From assembly GCA_964106645.2 (NCBI GenBank), contig OZ067047.1: a stretch of 64,000 nucleotides of DNA, one strand, 5' to 3'. Shown here piece after piece: positions 12,473 through 64,000 of this stretch (position 1 is its first letter; every line of letters begins with the position of its first letter). Made by a program: the position numbers and the translations under genes. The notes under the pieces are model-generated. The model worked only from the letters and a program-made list of their open reading frames with translations. It had not been told where the DNA came from and did not search any database. The stretch comes from Podarcis pityusensis. Its lineage: Eukaryota.

Positions 12473-13639
12473 GTAAAATAAGATCCTATGTTATGTATGT
12501 TACAAGCATCAGTACATGTATGTCACTCTTGAACACATCTGATTTACAATGAAATAGTAAATATGCTGAGGTTTTTTCTTAAAATTGTTGAAACATGTTG
12601 CCATTAGGAAAATGTGCTCAAGCCATGGCTGTTTTCCTTTACATGCCAGCATGGGCTGTTTAATTGTCCTTTCAGCTCCAGACCATTATGACCTTTTTAT
12701 TTTACAACAGTTTTTATATTGCACATTATTGTGTGCTACTTTTATTATTTTCATAGCTTTTAGCTTTTGATATATTGTGTATTTACATTTTCATTGTTTT
12801 ATTCTTTTTGTAAACTGCCGTGGAAATATAATTGAAGGGCTGTAAAACCACTTTACATAAATAAATAGTGGCTTGCGTAGAGTGTTCCAGGAAATTTAAG
12901 GATGAGTTGAGATTTGAATTGGCGGTTTCAGTTTCTTAGCTCATATTGTTAACCACTGCACTGCTCCCGCTCTGAACTCCTGAGCAAATGTGGGCAAGTG
13001 AAGCTACAGTGACTGAGAGTTTTGGAATGTGGAAAGAGATAATATTCACCCCAGGAAGGGAGATTTAACTAGAACATTTTAAGAAGTGAAAAATGTCTCT
13101 GCACAGCAACCAATGGCAGTTTTGCCTTTACTTTTTAGCAGGGCTTATTTAAAACAGGATGTGTTTTTGGCAGTGGCTGCTATGCAGCCCTCATGGGATT
13201 CTGATAAGATGGCTGAGACAGAAAACAGATTGTGGATAGAAAACTGCAGCTTTGCAATAAAAATGGTGTCCCATCCTTTGTGTCTGGTGTATGCTAAAAA
13301 GAGAGAGAAAGGACTGAGGACAGATTCCTGGGGGGAACGCAGCAGAAGGAAGCTGAAACGACCATCACAAAGGAAGTAACTATTTCAAGAACAGGAGGAA
13401 ATCTTAAACACCTATAATGTTAGTAGTTGAGGAGAAAGACTTGTGCAAGCATAGAAAGACACTTTGGTGAATTAAATCTAGCAAAATATCAACCCTGCAT
13501 TAGCAATAACATGGTTTCACTACAAACTTATACAGTTGTTATATTTTTTAATCTATATTCCGAAAAATGCCCAAAAACCTTGCACAGAAATCATCACATT
13601 TTATCAAGTAACGACTACGAAAATAATGACTATGCTATC

Positions 13640-14047
13640 TGTGATGGGACGATGAGCTGCTTGTGTGTAAAATCCAAGTCCCTCAGAGTTTGGTCAAGTT
13701 TGCAAACCTCTGTCTGTAACGGAGCCCCTTAAACATGGCTCCGTCAGTCGCTGGCAGATTCCGACAGTGGTTGCTTTCGGAATCGCTTCCAACATAAAAG
13801 CTCCTTAACGGAAACACGTCTTCTGGACTCTCTGCGTGACAGTTTCCGGCGAGGAGTGGGTGTCCCTACAGGAGGTCCTGAAACCTCCCCACTGTTTTCG
13901 CTGGAAGTGTCTCTGAGCCATCCCTCCAGCTCACTTTCCCTCAGCTCAGCTCCTCTCCCCCTACTGGTTCCCTCTTCAGCTGCTGAGTCTCTCCCAACCT
14001 GTGTGAGCCCTTTCACTTCCCTTCCTTCCGATGGCAGTTCCCTGACA
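13640..14047 (-). repeat. 3' LTR of the Gypsy element
   Basis: Direct repeat of 18723-19130; preceded on the minus strand by the PPT GGAGGGGAGGTGGA (14048-14061). Confidence 0.97.
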
Positions 14048-17000
14048 TCCACCTCCCCTCCAGGGCCCCCTTCATCCCCTCTCGCCCCCTCCTCTACGGG
14101 CGGTGAGGAGGCAAAACCCCGGAATGAACTTCCTTCATCTTCCGATGTCTCGAACACTTCTCTCCACCTGTTGCGGTTCCTGGTCTCGAAGTACTCCTCC
14201 TCCTCAGAGTCCATCTCCCCTTCCCCTTCCGAGTCCGAGAATCCTTCCAACTCCTCCTCCTCATCGGTGGTCCCAAAGTATTCCCTCCGGAACCTCTCCA
14301 CAGGCTGAGGTTTCCTTGGGAACCTTTGATGGAACGTTTCTATCAATACCTCGTCATTGATATCTTCTGCCATTACCCAAGTGTTTTCTGACTCCGGTTC
14401 TCCTTCCCACGCTACCAAATACTCCACCTGATTCCCCTTCCACCTGGCGTCGAGGATTTCTGCCACATGGCTACTGCATTCCCTTTCTTCTATGACCGGT
14501 CCCCGAGTGGCCATCCCTTCTCGTCCCCCCTCATACGGTGACAGTAACGACCTGTGAAATACTGGGTGCAGTTTCATGTGGTTGGGTAACCGGAGCCTGA
14601 AAGCCACTGGGTTGACCTGTTGAATGACCTCAAAGGGACCCAATCTCCTGGGTCTTAATTTCTTACAACCTCCTTTGAACGGCAACCCTTGGGTTGACAG
14701 CCACACCCTATCTCCCACCCTTATGGTTTCACCTTCCCTTCGGTTCTTGTCTGCCTGCCTCTTGTATTCTTCCTTCGCCCTTTCTAAGTTGAGTTGGAGC
14801 TGACGATGGATTGCTTCCATTTCTTCTACAAAATGCTCGGCTGCCGGGACGCTCCATCTCTCCCCTTCTCCCCCTGGGAAAGCCCTGGGATGACACCCAT
14901 AATTAGCCAAGAAGGGGCTCATCCCTGTGGACACATTCTCGGCATTGTTGTAGGCAAATTCCGCCAGCGCCAACTTTTCTACCCAGTCATTCTCTCTGTC
15001 ATTGACATAACACCTCAGGTATTGCTGGAGGACACCGTTTGCTCTTTCCGCCTGCCCGTTGGTTTCAGGGTGCCGGGCAGTCGAAAAGTTGACCTCCACC
15101 TGCAGTAAGCTCATGAGCTTCCTCCAGAACCTGGAAGTAAATTGTTTTCCTCGGTCTGAGACCACCCTCAATGGCACCCCGTGCAACCTAAAAATGTGTT
15201 CTACAAATAACTTCGCTGTCTCTTCCGCCGTGACTGCATGCGAGCAGGCTACAAAGTGGCACATCTTTGTTAGTAGGTCTACCACCACCATGATGGCTGT
15301 TTTCCCCTTGGACTTCAGCAGATCAGTCATAAAATCTATCGACACTGCCTCCCAAGGTCGTTTTGGGGTTGGTAAGGGTTCTAATAGCCCCGCCGGTGCC
15401 CGCCTCTCCCCTTTGGCTTGCTGGCATTGCTCACACCCTCTTACATACTCCCGTACATCTTCCCTCACCTTAGGCCACCAAAATTCCCTGGTGACCAACC
15501 ACATGGTTTTGTGTTGTCCAAAATGCCCCGCCGTGGGGTTGTCGTGCAACTGCTTGAGTACCCTCCCCCTTAAGTCTCCTTCAGGGATATACAGTGCCCC
15601 TTTGTAATACAAAGCTCCATTTCTTTCCTCGAAACCCCCTGGTTCCTCTCCCTCACCCCTAAGACCTCTGAGCTTATTCTGGGCGTATTCATCATTCTCT
15701 GTTTCCTCTACCAGTTCTCTTTGTCCCACCAATGCCGCCCCACACACCCAGCAGTCCTCTGGAATGACATGTCTCTCTTCGGGTGCTCCCTCCCCCTCCA
15801 AATATTCAGGTTTGCGTGAGAGAGCGTCCGCCCTAATGTTCTCTGGGCCTGGCACGTAACAAATCTCAAAGTTAAATTTGGAGAACTCCTGGGCCCATCT
15901 CACTTGCCGTTGGTTGAGCACTCGTGCCGTCCTCCAATACTCTAGGTTCTTGTGGTCAGTGCACACTTGCACCTTATGTTGTGCGCCAATTAGCAGGTGC
16001 CTCCATCTCCGGAACGCCTCATGAATGGCTAGTAGTTCTCGGTCATACACCGTGTAGTTCCTCTCGGATTTGTTCAGCTTTCGCGAAAAAAAGGCACACG
16101 GTCTCCACTCTGACTCCTCCTTCCCTGGCTGCAGAAGCACCGCCCCAATCGCTCTGTCTGATGCGTCAGTTTCCACTCTCATCGGTTTTTGTAAATCCAC
16201 ATGCAGGAGTTGTTGTTCCGAGGCGAAGGCCCTTTTTAGTTCCTCAAATGCTCGCTCCGCCTCCTCAGTCCAAACGAACTTCTTCTTACTGCTGAGACAG
16301 TCCGTAATGGGCGCCGTCAGGTGGGCAAAGTTTCGGATGAACTTACGATAGAAGTTCCCAAATCCTAGGAACCTCTGCACATCCTTCCTTGTTTTGGGTG
16401 TTTTCCATTCCAGCACCGCCTGGACCTTGCCGGGATCCATGGCCAATCCCTTGTCTGACAGGCGATACCCCAGGAATTCCACCTCCTTGGTATGAAACTG
16501 ACACTTCTCCAGTTTCACCCACAGCTGGTTGGCTTGCAGCCTGCTCAACACTTCTCTGACGTCTCTCACATGCTGCTCCTCATTCTCAGAATACACCAAC
16601 ACGTCGTCTAAGAAGGCCACACAATTCTTGTAAAGCAAAGGCCCCAGGACGTGGTTCATAAACGATTGAAAGCATGCGGAGCCTCCTTGTAGGCCGAAGG
16701 GCATAACTAAATATTCAAATGCCCCTAAAGGGGTGAACATGGTGGTTTTCCATTCATCCCCCTTCCTTATTCGTATCAGGTTGTACGCCCCCCTTAGGTC
16801 CAGCTTTGTGAAAATCTTTCCCTTCCGCACCCTTGTCAAAATGTCGTCAATCCTGGGCATAGGGAAAGCCACTGGTTCTGACACTGCATTTAAGGCCCTG
16901 AAGTCACACACCAGCCTCGGCTTGCTCGTGTTTTTTTTATCCACAAAAAACACTGGGCTGCCCCCCACCGCCCTGGACTCTCTGATGAACCCTCTCTTCA

Positions 17001-17720
17001 GGTTCTTGTCAATGAACTCTCTTAGCTCCTGCATCTCTCTGTCTGACATGGCGTACAGCTTGCCTACAGGGAGCTGTGCCCCAGGGAGTAAATTGATTTG
17101 ACAGTCAAAGGGTCTATGCGGAGGTAGTTGGTCAGCTTCCCTTTCGCTGAAGACGTCGCGGAGATCTGCGTATTGTCGTGGTACCTTCACGTTCTCCGTT
17201 ACTTCAGTCCCTGCTAGGGTGGCTTGGGCCCCTGCCAAACCCTTTCCCTCTTTGCAGTGTTCTAAGCAATGTGCTGAACCAAAAGAAACCACTCTCTGAT
17301 GCCAGCCCACCAGCGGATCATGTAACGCTAGCCAGCTCATCCCCAATATAATGGGAGCTCCTCCCAAGGTGGCCACATTAAACGCTATCAGTTCGGTGTG
17401 CCTTGCCACCTTCATTATCATTGGGACGGTCTGCAAGCTGACTTCTCCTCCCAACAGCTCCCTGCCATCGATCGTGGTCACCTGCAGGGGGTTGCTTAAA
17501 GGGATCGTCTGTATCTGGTGTTCAGCTGCAAACTCTTTGCTCATGAAATTGCAGGAGCTGCCTGAGTCCAACAGCGCCTTTATCTTTAGAGGGTGTCCGT
17601 TTGGCAGCTCTAGCGCCACTTCTATCACTAGGGCGGGTTTAGGAGGTTCTGGCGTGGGCACTTTCACTGCTCTTTGGCCTGGCTGCTGTGCCCCGACGGT
17701 GGCAGCCAGGCGTTGGCTTT
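13744..17720 (-). CDS. pol: Pol (protease-RT-RNase H-integrase-chromodomain-acidic/basic tail), probably expressed by -1 frameshift from gag
   Basis: LLDSGS protease; FLDD RT; ETDAS RNase H; HDNPTAGH...CEQC and DDE integrase; GPF motif; chromodomain YLVAWEG...NTW; no internal stops. Confidence 0.95.
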
Positions 17721-18677
17721 TACTTGCTCCGGTATTTCTTCCTCTCTTCCCTCCACAGCTCCTACCATCCCTTGCCATTCCTTCCTCTGGGGGCAGACTC
17801 TGGCAAAGTGACCTGGCTGTTGGCAGAGATAGCATTTCCGGGCGCCTTTTCCCTCCTTCTTTCCCCCCTCACTGGGCTTTGAAACTGCGCGCGCGCGCGC
17901 TGTTCCGATTTCCATCGGCTCTGCCGGCGGGAAAGTTGGCTCTGGAATGTCTGGAATGCGGAACTCCTTCCAACGTTCCCCCTTCCCTTCCCGCCTCTCC
18001 AATGCTCTCGCCTCCTGGCGCGCTCCTATGGTCAGCGCTGATTTGGTCAGCTGGTCCATAGACTCCGCCCTGGGCGCCCGGGAAAGTTCGTCTTTCACAG
18101 CCGAAGAAAGCCCTTCTTCAAAGAGCATTTGAATGGGTTCCGCCGATAGATCCCACCCCAATTTATGGATCAACATGGTGAACTCAGTCCAGTACTCACG
18201 GACAGATCGGCTCCCCTGTTTGCAAGCCATTAACTGTCTGCGGACCACTCCCTGTTCAATATCGCTGGAAAACATCAGATCCATGGCGCGAAAGAACTTC
18301 ATTGTGTCCTTTAGGACGTCACTATTCGCTGCCATCAGGGGTCTAACCCAGTCTCTCGCCCCCTTTTCAAGATGCCCAATCACGAAAGCCACTCGTGATT
18401 CCTCGTCAGGGAATTCATCAAACTGCAGATTGAGGGCATATTGCATCTCTGTCCGAAAGCCATGATAGTCTTTGGGCTCCCCCCCAAACTTCTGCACCAA
18501 TCCTGGTACCTTTCTGGCGAGCTGGGTGTCTTTCCCCTTTTTGTCTGCATCCTGAGCCCTCCTCTCCTCAAGCCTCGCCGTCTGCAGCGCTAGCTGGACC
18601 TCCAACACCCGGTACCTTTCTTCCAGGCTTGGACCCGCCCCAGCTCCTGCTTCTCCGGTTCCGGCTGGGTTGCTCAT
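17664..18677 (-). CDS. gag: Gag (sushi/PEG10-like capsid plus CCHC zinc knuckle), 337 aa
   Basis: Open ORF; QGSRSVREY and EGLSSAVKDEL capsid motifs, EPMEIG, CYLCQQPGHFARVC. Confidence 0.95.
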   Translation of the reverse strand: MSNPAGTGEAGAGAGPSLEERYRVLEVQLALQTARLEERRAQDADKKGKDTQLARKVPGLVQKFGGEPKDYHGFRTEMQYALNLQFDEFPDEESRVAFVIGHLEKGARDWVRPLMAANSDVLKDTMKFFRAMDLMFSSDIEQGVVRRQLMACKQGSRSVREYWTEFTMLIHKLGWDLSAEPIQMLFEEGLSSAVKDELSRAPRAESMDQLTKSALTIGARQEARALERREGKGERWKEFRIPDIPEPTFPPAEPMEIGTARARAVSKPSEGGKKEGKGARKCYLCQQPGHFARVCPQRKEWQGMVGAVEGREEEIPEQVKANAWLPPSGHSSQAKEQ

Positions 18678-18722
18678 GATGCCTTCTCCTGCACAAGCTG
18701 CTCACGGAGACTGTCGGAATGC

Positions 18723-19130
18723 TGTGATGGGACGATGAGCTGCTTGTGTGTAAAATCCAAGTCCCTCAGAGTTTGGTCAAGTTTGCAAACCTCTGTCTGT
18801 AACGGACCCCCTTAAACATGGCTCCGTCAGTCGCTGGCAGATTCCGACAGTGGTTGCTTTCGGAATCGCTTCCAACATAAAAGCTCCTTAACGGAAACAC
18901 GTCTTCTGGACTCTCTGCGTGACAGTTTCCGGCGAGGAGTGGGTGTCCCTACAGGAGGTCCTGAAACCTCCCCACTGTTTTCGCTGGAAGTGTCTCTGAG
19001 CCATCCCTCCAGCTCACTTTCCCTCAGCTCAGCTCCTCTCCCCCTACTGGTTCCCTCTTCAGCTGCTGAGTCTCTCCCAACCTGTGTGAGCCCTTTCACT
19101 TCCCTTCCTTCCGATGGCAGTTCCCTGACA
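18723..19130 (-). repeat. 5' LTR of the Gypsy element
   Basis: Direct repeat of 13640-14047 with one mismatch (18807 C vs 13724 G). Confidence 0.97.
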
Positions 19131-21251
19131 CTATCCTATGAATTAGTACCTTTCTGTCGTAAAATTTGAGCATCCATCAATCTATTGTTGTATAAATGTA
19201 TCATTCATTATCTACAGCCACACAGAGTTGGTTTGAATTTTGCTGCTCTGTATGCATGTGATAATGCACAAGCACACATTTGACAGAATAATTTATTCTT
19301 TGGAGAATAGTTATGAATGGAGTTTCCAGTGTGCCTCCATGTTCCTAGTTTATTGTAATGTAAAGAGCAACTGTGTTAAAAGTACAGATATCCTGTCTAA
19401 TTTATGGAAAGCCATTATGTAGTCATCTGGGCTTTCATACAGACATCAGGAAAAGCATTTAGAGAAAGCTGTGTGGAACTGAAACTTTATTTAAATGGGA
19501 TTAACAATTTCTCTTCCACAAAGTCAATTCCTTAAAGCTAATCAAAATTTCCAAGGAACATGTCTTTTTTGCTTGCTACAGTGACTTTAATCACTTCTTT
19601 ATAAGTGGTGTAACATCTTCATATAGGATGCAACTTGGATCCATCTGCTAGGGGCCATGTGAGCCAATACGATGATTTTAACATTTTGCGGGGAACACAC
19701 CAACAGCATGTGCTGCGTTTCTCTTTCTCAATTCCTTCTCAAAGAGATAAGTCCTCGCTCCAAGAATATCCTGATATTTATAAACAAACCAAATCTTTAG
19801 AAAATTACTACCTCCCAACACCAATAATCATCATTATTTTTCCCAGGGATTGTATTTTTGTGTGTGTAATTTTAATTCTTTCTTCTTGTACATTATTGGA
19901 GGATACGTTCCGCTTAAATAAACAAGAATGAAAAAACCCCCTATTTTTGTATGCCTCTCTTAACTGAGCAAATAGAAACTTGAAGGAGCTGGTTTACATG
20001 GGGGACACAGTGGCTAAGATAAGATTAACACTTCTCTTCCAGAGTAGTTGCCCCAACTCAATTCAGGGATGCTTTAAAAAGAAGGGAAATCTGGTCGTCT
20101 AGTTTGGACCTATATTTCCAGGCTGAATTAGCTCCTACATTGTGAGATGGGCTTTGAAGCCTTGTCTAGAGTATATTCTAAAAATAACCAGGTTACTAAA
20201 TAAGAGTGTTATTTGAAAAAAGTATACAACAGCTGTTTTCTATCACTTTTATGTGTTAAGATTGCCAGATTATGTTTGGTTCACCAGTGTTGCCAAGGCA
20301 GTTTCACTGAATTATTTTCCCTCTACAAACTGATCAGCTATAAAAATACAAGTTTGAGACAATGTGATTAATTAGCACAAGTACTTTTTGAAAGCAGGAA
20401 GAACTACGGATATGATCTTTTGAGGTTTAAAACTATTCATCATCAGTTTAGTAAGTTTAAGAGTCTCAAATGAGCACCTTTTTCTCAAGCAGTGAGACAT
20501 TCCAGGGGTCTAAGTGCTTCACAGCGTTTGGTTTCCTTTGGAAGAAAGGATCTCTGGAAACTTATGTCAATTTGCAATATTGAAATTTATTTACTAACAT
20601 ACACATACTGGGTGGTCAAGATAAAAATACAGTTGTGAAGACTGCACATTTTCTATCTGCAGCATCTGATGAGAGGAGTAATTTCTTGAGAGAGAATGTT
20701 GTGTCTTATCAGGGAGATTTAGAAATTTAGGTTTGTTTTATATATTTTTTCATTTAGGTTTTACAAAATTTTATTCAGATTTGCACACATCCATTTCATT
20801 TTATACTTGATCAGTCCACTAAGTTCTTTCTCTGGTCAGTCACCACCAAGTTCAGACCCTGTTATCATATATATTTTTGTCCTTGTGTGCATCACCTAAC
20901 ACTTGTTTACACTGAATCACATTTTATGCCCTTTCACCAAGCTTGAAGCAATTCTTTCTTTCCTTGCAGTCCCTTTTTGTTCTTACCACTATGAAAAATT
21001 AATAAATCAAATCCAAGAGCAGTTTGGAGGCTTGAAAGAGCACAGAGGCATGTAGAGATCATTCAAATGAGCTTTTCTTGACTGCAACCAGTAGATAACT
21101 TAACTCATTAGGGGATGGAAGCAGCTCAGTTCCACAGCTCATACTTTGCAAGCAGAATGTCCCAGGTGTGATTAGAAAAAAACTCATTGGTGAAACCCTG
21201 GAGAGCCACTGTCCATCCATGCCAATGATAGCTGGGCTAGATGGGCCTATG

Positions 21252-63357: not shown

Positions 63358-63480
63358 AAACCCATCCTGGAAGTTTCAAAACAACAAGCGCAGAACCGGT
63401 GAGCTGTACTAGCAGCGATTGGCCAGTCCAGTGGCGCCGAGGTGGCTGCTGGGAATTGTGGTTCTCTGCTGACGTCGGAG
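63358..63480 (-). other. FAM185A: Probable non-coding exon 1 of FAM185A (5' end approximate)
   Basis: Strong donor gtaagtg at 63357-63351 pairs with the acceptor at 63214 (144-bp intron); lies inside the CpG island. Confidence 0.5.
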
Positions 63481-63800
63481 CGTTGACGGAGCCTGAAGGC
63501 CGAACTACAAGTCCCGAGAAGCTGAGCGTCTCCCGGGGAAGCTTTGGCCCATGAGCGGCTGGGGGAGGCGGATGTCTCCCTGCCTCCCTCAGGACAGGAT
63601 GGAGTCTTGCGGCTGCCCAATAGGAAGCGCGGAGGGCGGGACTGGAAGAGGAGAGCCGGTCTCCATGGCAACGCAGGGCGCTGACGGGGCTCCAGCCTCT
63701 CCGGCGGCGGCGGCGGCGGCGGCGGCGGCGTCGAGGTTTCCCCGGAGGGAGCGGGGCCGCGCGGGGAAGGTAAAGGAGCAGGCGCGAGCTGGTTTAAAAA
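63400..63800. promoter_or_regulatory. CpG-island promoter, probably bidirectional: CCAAT (63418-63422 -, 63617-63621 +), ZNF143-type motifs (63447-63463 -, 63504-63515 +), CRE-like TGACGTC (63470-63476), GC box (~63634), RFX X-box GTCTCCATGGCAAC (63659-63672)
   Basis: High CpG density; motifs read directly from the sequence. Confidence 0.75.
63702..63730. repeat. (CGG)9-10 trinucleotide repeat in the CpG island
   Basis: Read directly. Confidence 0.95.
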
Positions 63801-64000
63801 GGAGGGAAGGAAGCCTGCTCTGGGCGCGAGGGGAGGAGTCGTGGGATTTGAAGAGATGGAAGGGGTCCCCGAGGGTCATCTAGACCGACCCCCTTCAGTG
63901 CAATGACGCGGGAGAAGGAAGCGGAGCAATGGCGTCTGGAACTTGGATTCGTCCGCCCCAGAATGTGTTTCAAGGGCACAAGCAGCCCAGAGAACCCCAC

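Follow-up and report, generated by a model that had tools for sequence, protein, structure and literature searches.

In the Tf1 retrotransposon of Schizosaccharomyces pombe, the 11 bases at the 5′ end of the element RNA serve as the primer for reverse transcription after their release by RNase H cleavage between nucleotides 11 and 12 (PMC7175516). The Tf1 fold comprises three duplexes arranged as a 'pretzel', and self-priming has been presented as a feature shared by the Tf1/sushi group (bioRxiv 2022.12.06.519325). A primer copy is retained in approximately half of the Tf1 cDNA, and untemplated bases are present in most of the cDNA (PMC11042837). The original prediction for the locus described here had noted that self-priming was already proposed for the vertebrate members of this group, and the literature agrees: the mechanism has been 'implicated' from fungi to vertebrates (PMC4600332, PMC6317226), and Butler et al. 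(2001) are cited as having predicted that vertebrate chromoviruses self-prime through the 'pretzel' fold (PMC4600332, PMC6317226, bioRxiv 2022.12.06.519325). In these sources, self-priming is demonstrated only in the fission yeast Tf1, and for vertebrates it is predicted or implicated.

The window, that is, the whole 64,000-nt stretch of Podarcis pityusensis DNA that was analysed, contains a 5,491-nt LTR retrotransposon on the minus strand, the strand of all the features described below, and the self-priming site under study is its 5′ end. The 5′ LTR (18723..19130) and the 3′ LTR (13640..14047) are both 408 nt long and differ at a single base (18807); the 5′ copy has the form TG...CA (TGTCAGG...CATCACA). 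A 5-bp target-site duplication, GATAG, flanks both element ends (19131..19135 and 13635-13639), and a polypurine tract lies at 14048..14072. The gag ORF (17664..18677, with its ATG at 18677) encodes capsid and CCHC knuckle domains. The pol ORF (13744..17868) is in the −1 frame, overlaps gag between 17664 and 17868, encodes protease (PR), RT, RNase H, integrase (IN), SH3 and chromodomain regions, and runs through U3 into R of the 3′ LTR. The chromodomain at the integrase C-terminus was recognized by PF00385 (E 1.2e-9), together with SH3_Tf2-1, and was also found at E < 1e-9 in nine of 12 other family representatives. The TG...CA LTRs, the 5-bp target duplication and the order PR-RT-RNase H-IN are Ty3/gypsy traits, and from its sequence we classify the element as a young Ty3/gypsy chromovirus.

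The closest named records to its RT were Podarcis muralis UniRef proteins (93-97% identical), followed by amphibian, fish and fungal proteins at 40-54%, one of them named Tf2-like. PEG10 was the only solved relative of Gag, and Ty3 the closest solved relative of Pol. In an RT tree that was midpoint-rooted, held no reference Tf1, sushi or outgroup sequence and left out three families with broken or missing RT, the element grouped with fish and amphibian records; RT identity among the related families was 55-85%. The element most likely belongs to the vertebrate Tf1/sushi group.

The genome holds 1,155 LTR-leader junctions of the window's family, and the best 30 matches differed from the window at 0-6 of 531 bases. 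An older copy (L173) has a single open frame of 1,643 codons upstream of the 3′ primer copy. On C1, junctions L225-L228 and L252-L253 are spaced about 5,083 and 4,800 nt, a spacing that suggests tandem element arrays with shared LTRs, as in integrase-independent Tf1 insertions (PMC11042837). Contig C19, possibly a repeat-rich sex chromosome, carries many matches of several LTR families, including a regularly spaced array at 0.53-0.96 Mb. Elsewhere in the window, a CpG island at 63400-64000, with a GGC repeat and long ORFs without a Pfam match, is probably a host gene promoter; it also contains a ACTACAAGTCCC motif, which we take to be ZNF143/SBS-like.

The CA end of the 5′ LTR is followed by a 2-nt spacer, GC (18721..18722), and then by the primer-binding site (PBS), ATTCCGACAGT (18710..18720), so that the sequence read from 18722 to 18710 does not begin with TGG, as had been predicted. 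The spacer is GC or GT in all 12 families compared and is likely the dinucleotide trimmed by integrase, trimming of the LTR-terminal dinucleotide being a general activity of integrases. The PBS is not tRNA-like and was exact in 96 of 97 usable copies. A sequence check also confirmed its exact 11-nt complement inside the LTR, ACTGTCGGAAT (18841..18851), which begins 129 nt from the LTR end. This segment is the predicted self-primer, that is, the predicted first 11 nt of the transcript, with a pyrimidine-A, initiator-like start. The three following nucleotides of the transcript (12-14, CTG, 18838..18840) form a candidate cleavage context: nucleotide 12 (C, 18840) can pair with the first spacer base (G, 18722), leaving 18721 bulged. 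This pair could form in 12 of 12 families and the next two pairs in eight of 12, and a C:G pair beyond a one-base bulge is a possible cleavage-site context.

To assemble a comparative set, chromovirus families were gathered from the genome with gag queries and one Pfam profile search. Among 60 fetched stretches and the window, the LTR end could be set from an LTR pair, independently of the primer-PBS pairing, in 46 elements, and 15 were dropped for lack of a pair or of a CA end; 31 copies come from a single family, which dominates the sample. In 44 of the 46 elements, at least 10 of the 11 bases past the 2-nt spacer were matched in the LTR of the same element, and in 35 all 11 were, as against three of 598 control 11-mers that reached 10 matches. 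The two misses were one LTR homology that ended early and one misplaced LTR end. It is barely credible that the LTR complement is a product of chance or of passive inverted duplication with no role. The whole region folds no more stably than shuffles (z −0.99), as such an origin would allow, but this geometry recurs throughout the sample, an exact 11-mer complement at any of six start offsets arose in just 14 of 20,000 dinucleotide shuffles of the LTR, and the covariation described next largely refutes it.

The sample contained 12 primer types, each represented by one element in which the primer was located by searching past a CA-G-pyrimidine motif for the best match to the LTR. These 12 families have 12 different primers, among them ACTGTCGGAAT, ACTGACGGATT, AGTCTCTGCAA, AGAAGCGGCAA and AGATGGAGCTT, and 131 of their 132 primer-PBS pairs are Watson-Crick. 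When the PBSs were shuffled among the families, a mean of 66 pairs was obtained, and 131 was never reached in 100,000 trials. The covariation that the original prediction had proposed to look for across family members was therefore found, with double-sided changes at 10 of the 11 primer pairs in an eight-family alignment. Moreover, the helix has sharp ends, position −1 pairing in one of 12 families and position 12, in register, in none. Sliding the partners by 1-3 columns lowered pairing in the eight-family alignment from 94% to 27-42%, in a test whose structure was taken from the window, which favours the window's register over the slid versions, and whose families are related. Within family E, two of the copies L111, L113 and L114 carry the same change in primer and PBS and the third carries it in the PBS only; the latter copy is a possible intermediate.

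Changes on both sides were also observed in other species. In runs X2 and X3 (organism B, two studies) and X14 (organism C) the PBS was changed at 18713 and 18719 and the primer at the partner positions 18848 and 18842. Both changes are compensatory, from G-C to U-A and from A-U to U-A, and no other primer or PBS position was listed in these three runs. The PBS side of these data consists of 1-3 contigs per run, and each contig covers at most one of the two sites, so that primer and PBS changes are paired by run rather than by molecule. In runs X18 and X22 the window's PBS was kept, with primer variants at 6% or less. A search for the cross-species PBS variant in the window's own genome gave 0 matches.

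These data also bear on the source of the primer. When the PBS was compared with a partial set of 33 lizard tRNA predictions, which represent 13 anticodon types and derive from 30 of 54 Rfam hits, the longest complement was 5 nt, so that no better match than the LTR was present in the tested subset. The tRNA-primed class was rejected, as the PBS does not start with TGG and matched no tRNA 3′ end among these predictions. It could still be argued that a host tRNA, a tRNA fragment or another small RNA primes at the PBS, with the LTR complement serving as a decoy or regulatory strand, given that half-tRNA primers occur in other LTR lineages (PMC6317226) and that our comparison covered just 33 predictions. 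We consider this very unlikely. The twelve families have twelve unrelated PBS sequences, each tracking its own LTR, which is a stronger argument against a tRNA site than the partial tRNA search, and single-base changes are mirrored between species and between family E copies, a behaviour that host RNAs would not follow. In comparison with tRNA-primed LTR elements such as Ty3 and the retroviruses, the lizard element shares the layout LTR-PBS-gag-pol-PPT-LTR but has a PBS that lacks TGG and a complement in the partial tRNA set, differs by family and follows the LTR.

A second stem, of 12 pairs in 13 positions, had been predicted between U5 and the leader. The stem is present (U5 strand 18736..18748, leader strand 18692..18704) with one central A-A mismatch; its outer two pairs are not conserved, and what stands is an 11-bp core (18748-18738 with 18702-18692) that covaries. 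In eight families 87% of the cells of this core were paired, with double-sided changes at six of 11 pairs. By energy alone the stem gave p above 0.05 against shuffles in four of 12 families. A candidate third duplex pairs 18768-18761 with 18733-18725 (18725..18768), its loop holding the U5 strand; it occurs in the minimum free energy fold, with p 0.27 against shuffles. Candidates for such a duplex, between the LTR end and an upstream LTR segment, were found in all 12 families and none exceeded shuffles (p 0.08-0.88). Two of the three duplexes of the Tf1 'pretzel' are therefore supported by the lizard sequences.

The primer helix and the U5-leader helix cross, forming a pseudoknot, so ordinary folding cannot display both. 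With an RNA starting at 18851 the pairing probability of the primer helix was near 1. In pseudoknot-free folding the primer duplex had a probability below 0.1 in four of 12 families, where it is probably outcompeted by the crossing U5-leader stem. An 8-bp U3-R hairpin (18867-18860 with 18847-18840) could mask the 3′ primer copy in the window's family. As a general masking device this hairpin was set aside, being inconsistent across families, and when upstream sequence is included in the fold, pairing with the PBS is still preferred.

Next, we considered the properties of the putative transcription start at A18851. In 11 of 12 families the first primer base is an A preceded by a pyrimidine; the remaining family has a 10-nt primer, with GATAAAG located 30 nt before its start. 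The original prediction had pointed to a weak TATA-like TTTTATG (18876..18882, at −31) and to an alternative TTTAAG downstream; as promoter elements, neither is conserved. An A/T run at about −30 is present in six of 12 families and absent in the other six, and in the 3′ LTR TTTTATG reads as the pol codons Leu-Leu-Cys-Trp, so that a role as a TATA box is improbable. Conservation at −26 resides in the in-frame Cys-Trp codons (TGYTGG in five of 12 families, Asn-Trp in two more). Because pol reads through U3 into R and it is the Trp codon that is conserved, not the A/T run, the motif is weak evidence for the start. The alternative TTTAAG, located at 18816-18811, was not conserved in the eight-family alignment and was likewise rejected.

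In most families the pol frame crosses the whole of U3 and terminates 19-25 nt inside R (window 13744-14047, L119, L123, L128, L132, L140), with a tail that is acidic and then basic and carries a conserved Cys-Trp or Asn-Trp motif; within the 3′ LTR the primer is protein-coding. The window's family (18782-18768) and its nearest sister family (L132) lack AATAAA and have ACCAAA in the column where six other families have AATAAA; transcripts of the window's family may end at a non-standard or flanking signal.

The start is placed indirectly, by the bases just past the PBS. The MMLV RT copying capped RNA adds +CAA, +CCA or +CC, and the C has been attributed to the cap (PMC6885630). In the lizard elements the first base after the PBS (PBS+1, 18709), which we predict to face the primer's m7G cap, was C in 44 of 44 elements, whereas the next seven positions vary. 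Genome-wide, two copies of the window's family had a base other than C here. This C cannot pair with the genomic −1 base, and it may be partly inherited, since the 12 families are related. It is followed by a mutation hot spot (18705..18708), likely the end of the plus-strand primer copy with its untemplated additions, whose variants include CA, CC and CAA.

Scars at PBS+2 were predicted from the copying of a capped primer and then searched for. PBS+2 deviated in 20 copies, 12 of them CA, six CC and two starting with G; fifteen were young copies and five belonged to older subfamilies. The change from T to A was seen with each of the two common leader types and in four or more background haplotypes, whereas 0 copies varied at a leader T used as a control. 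The other control site, 18704, had 130 variant copies, and all 100 among the matches listed shared one haplotype, so that this control reflects a subfamily and not a rate and is uninformative. In the 100 of 1,155 junctions used for haplotype counts (80 young, 17 older, three dropped), the 4-nt interval starting at PBS+2 was the most haplotype-rich of 1,424, with five haplotypes as compared with four for nine other intervals.

Family B, chosen by gag similarity, had 11 junction haplotypes in 27 copies more than 95% identical, and at most five in any interval elsewhere; slippage at the adjoining A run could add to this variation. Six of 30 copies of this family have C at PBS position 11 and still A in the LTR, the pattern expected if transcription began one base later. 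Family E is also variable at the junction, but less so than at a homopolymer tract located beyond it. More generally, the hot spot lies in an unpaired linker, where relaxed selection could contribute to it. We also looked for captured cDNA ends, consisting of a 3′ LTR, a primer copy and unrelated DNA, and found none among 20 matches; 19 were 5′ LTRs continuing into the element and one (L215) was mis-oriented.

The invariant C and the hot spot fit a capped primer whose 5′ end is exactly A18851. We think it fairly probable that the DNA of these lizard chromoviruses is a fossil record of self-priming, with a cap-templated C after the PBS followed by untemplated scars, which would reveal both the start site and the real use of a capped self-primer in vertebrate Tf1/sushi elements.

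This footprint is also relevant to a reading in which the pairing is functional and the RNA starts upstream of 18851. The pairing would then belong to a packaging, dimerisation or translation structure, or the primer would be cut from a longer RNA or supplied in trans by a co-packaged RNA. No conserved TATA box fixes the start, the primer duplex of the window's family still forms with a probability of 0.83 after the addition of 40 upstream bases, and priming in trans and in cis are indistinguishable by sequence. However, the paired segment is constant in length and ends abruptly on its 5′ side at a pyrimidine-A, the invariant C and the hot spot start immediately past this boundary, and no other primer site adjoins the LTR; this reading is therefore improbable.

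Tf1-type self-priming, as originally proposed for this locus, is supported by the covariation among 12 families and in other species, by the lack of a tRNA match in the tested subset and by the fixed C and hot spot past the PBS. We regard it as highly probable that the capped 5′-terminal 11 nucleotides of the element's RNA serve as its primer for reverse transcription. RNA polymerase II would start at A18851. Nucleotides 1-11 would pair with the PBS and, at the same time, U5 with the leader, giving the pseudoknot. The element's own RT/RNase H would then cut between nucleotides 11 and 12, and RT would extend the 11-mer through the GC spacer, U5 and R. Later, plus-strand synthesis would copy the retained primer up to its cap, producing the PBS, then a C opposite the m7G and then untemplated bases, mostly A or C, which would sometimes be fixed after strand transfer. 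Since such copying would transfer primer mutations into the PBS, primer and PBS would drift together.

The mechanism is of a known kind. Like Tf1 and Tf2 of S. pombe (and Tj1, Tosmo1-3 and Tcry1), the lizard element is a chromovirus with an 11-nt LTR segment complementary to the PBS and a U5-leader duplex (PMC7175516, bioRxiv 2022.12.06.519325, PMC4600332). The likeness to Tf1 extends to the copying of the primer onto cDNA ends with untemplated additions, observed directly in Tf1 (PMC11042837) and suggested on the lizard side by the genomic footprint. Unlike Tf1 and Tf2, the lizard element has a vertebrate host, carries gag and pol in separate frames, and has a pol that runs into R, so that its primer also encodes protein in the 3′ LTR. 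With the vertebrate Tf1/sushi elements, as they are represented in the sources cited, it shares the vertebrate chromovirus type and the predicted self-priming. What our data add to those predictions is the strength of the covariation, across 12 families, and the cap-type scar. A search of literature listings, to which the primary Tf1 papers and Butler et al. (2001) contributed less than their full text, returned neither a lizard description of such an element nor a cap footprint past the PBS.

A dozen lizard families whose primers drift freely and yet are always complementary to their PBS constitute strong comparative support for self-priming in vertebrates. Over a thousand near-identical copies make the question directly testable by sequencing of RNA 5′ ends and cDNA ends. 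If the cap origin of the footprint is true, the invariant C and the scars let genomes reveal the primer type and the start site of their elements, and the footprint would provide a general test of self-priming versus tRNA priming for any many-copy LTR family. Moreover, host control through tRNA fragments that act on the PBS would presumably not reach self-primed elements.
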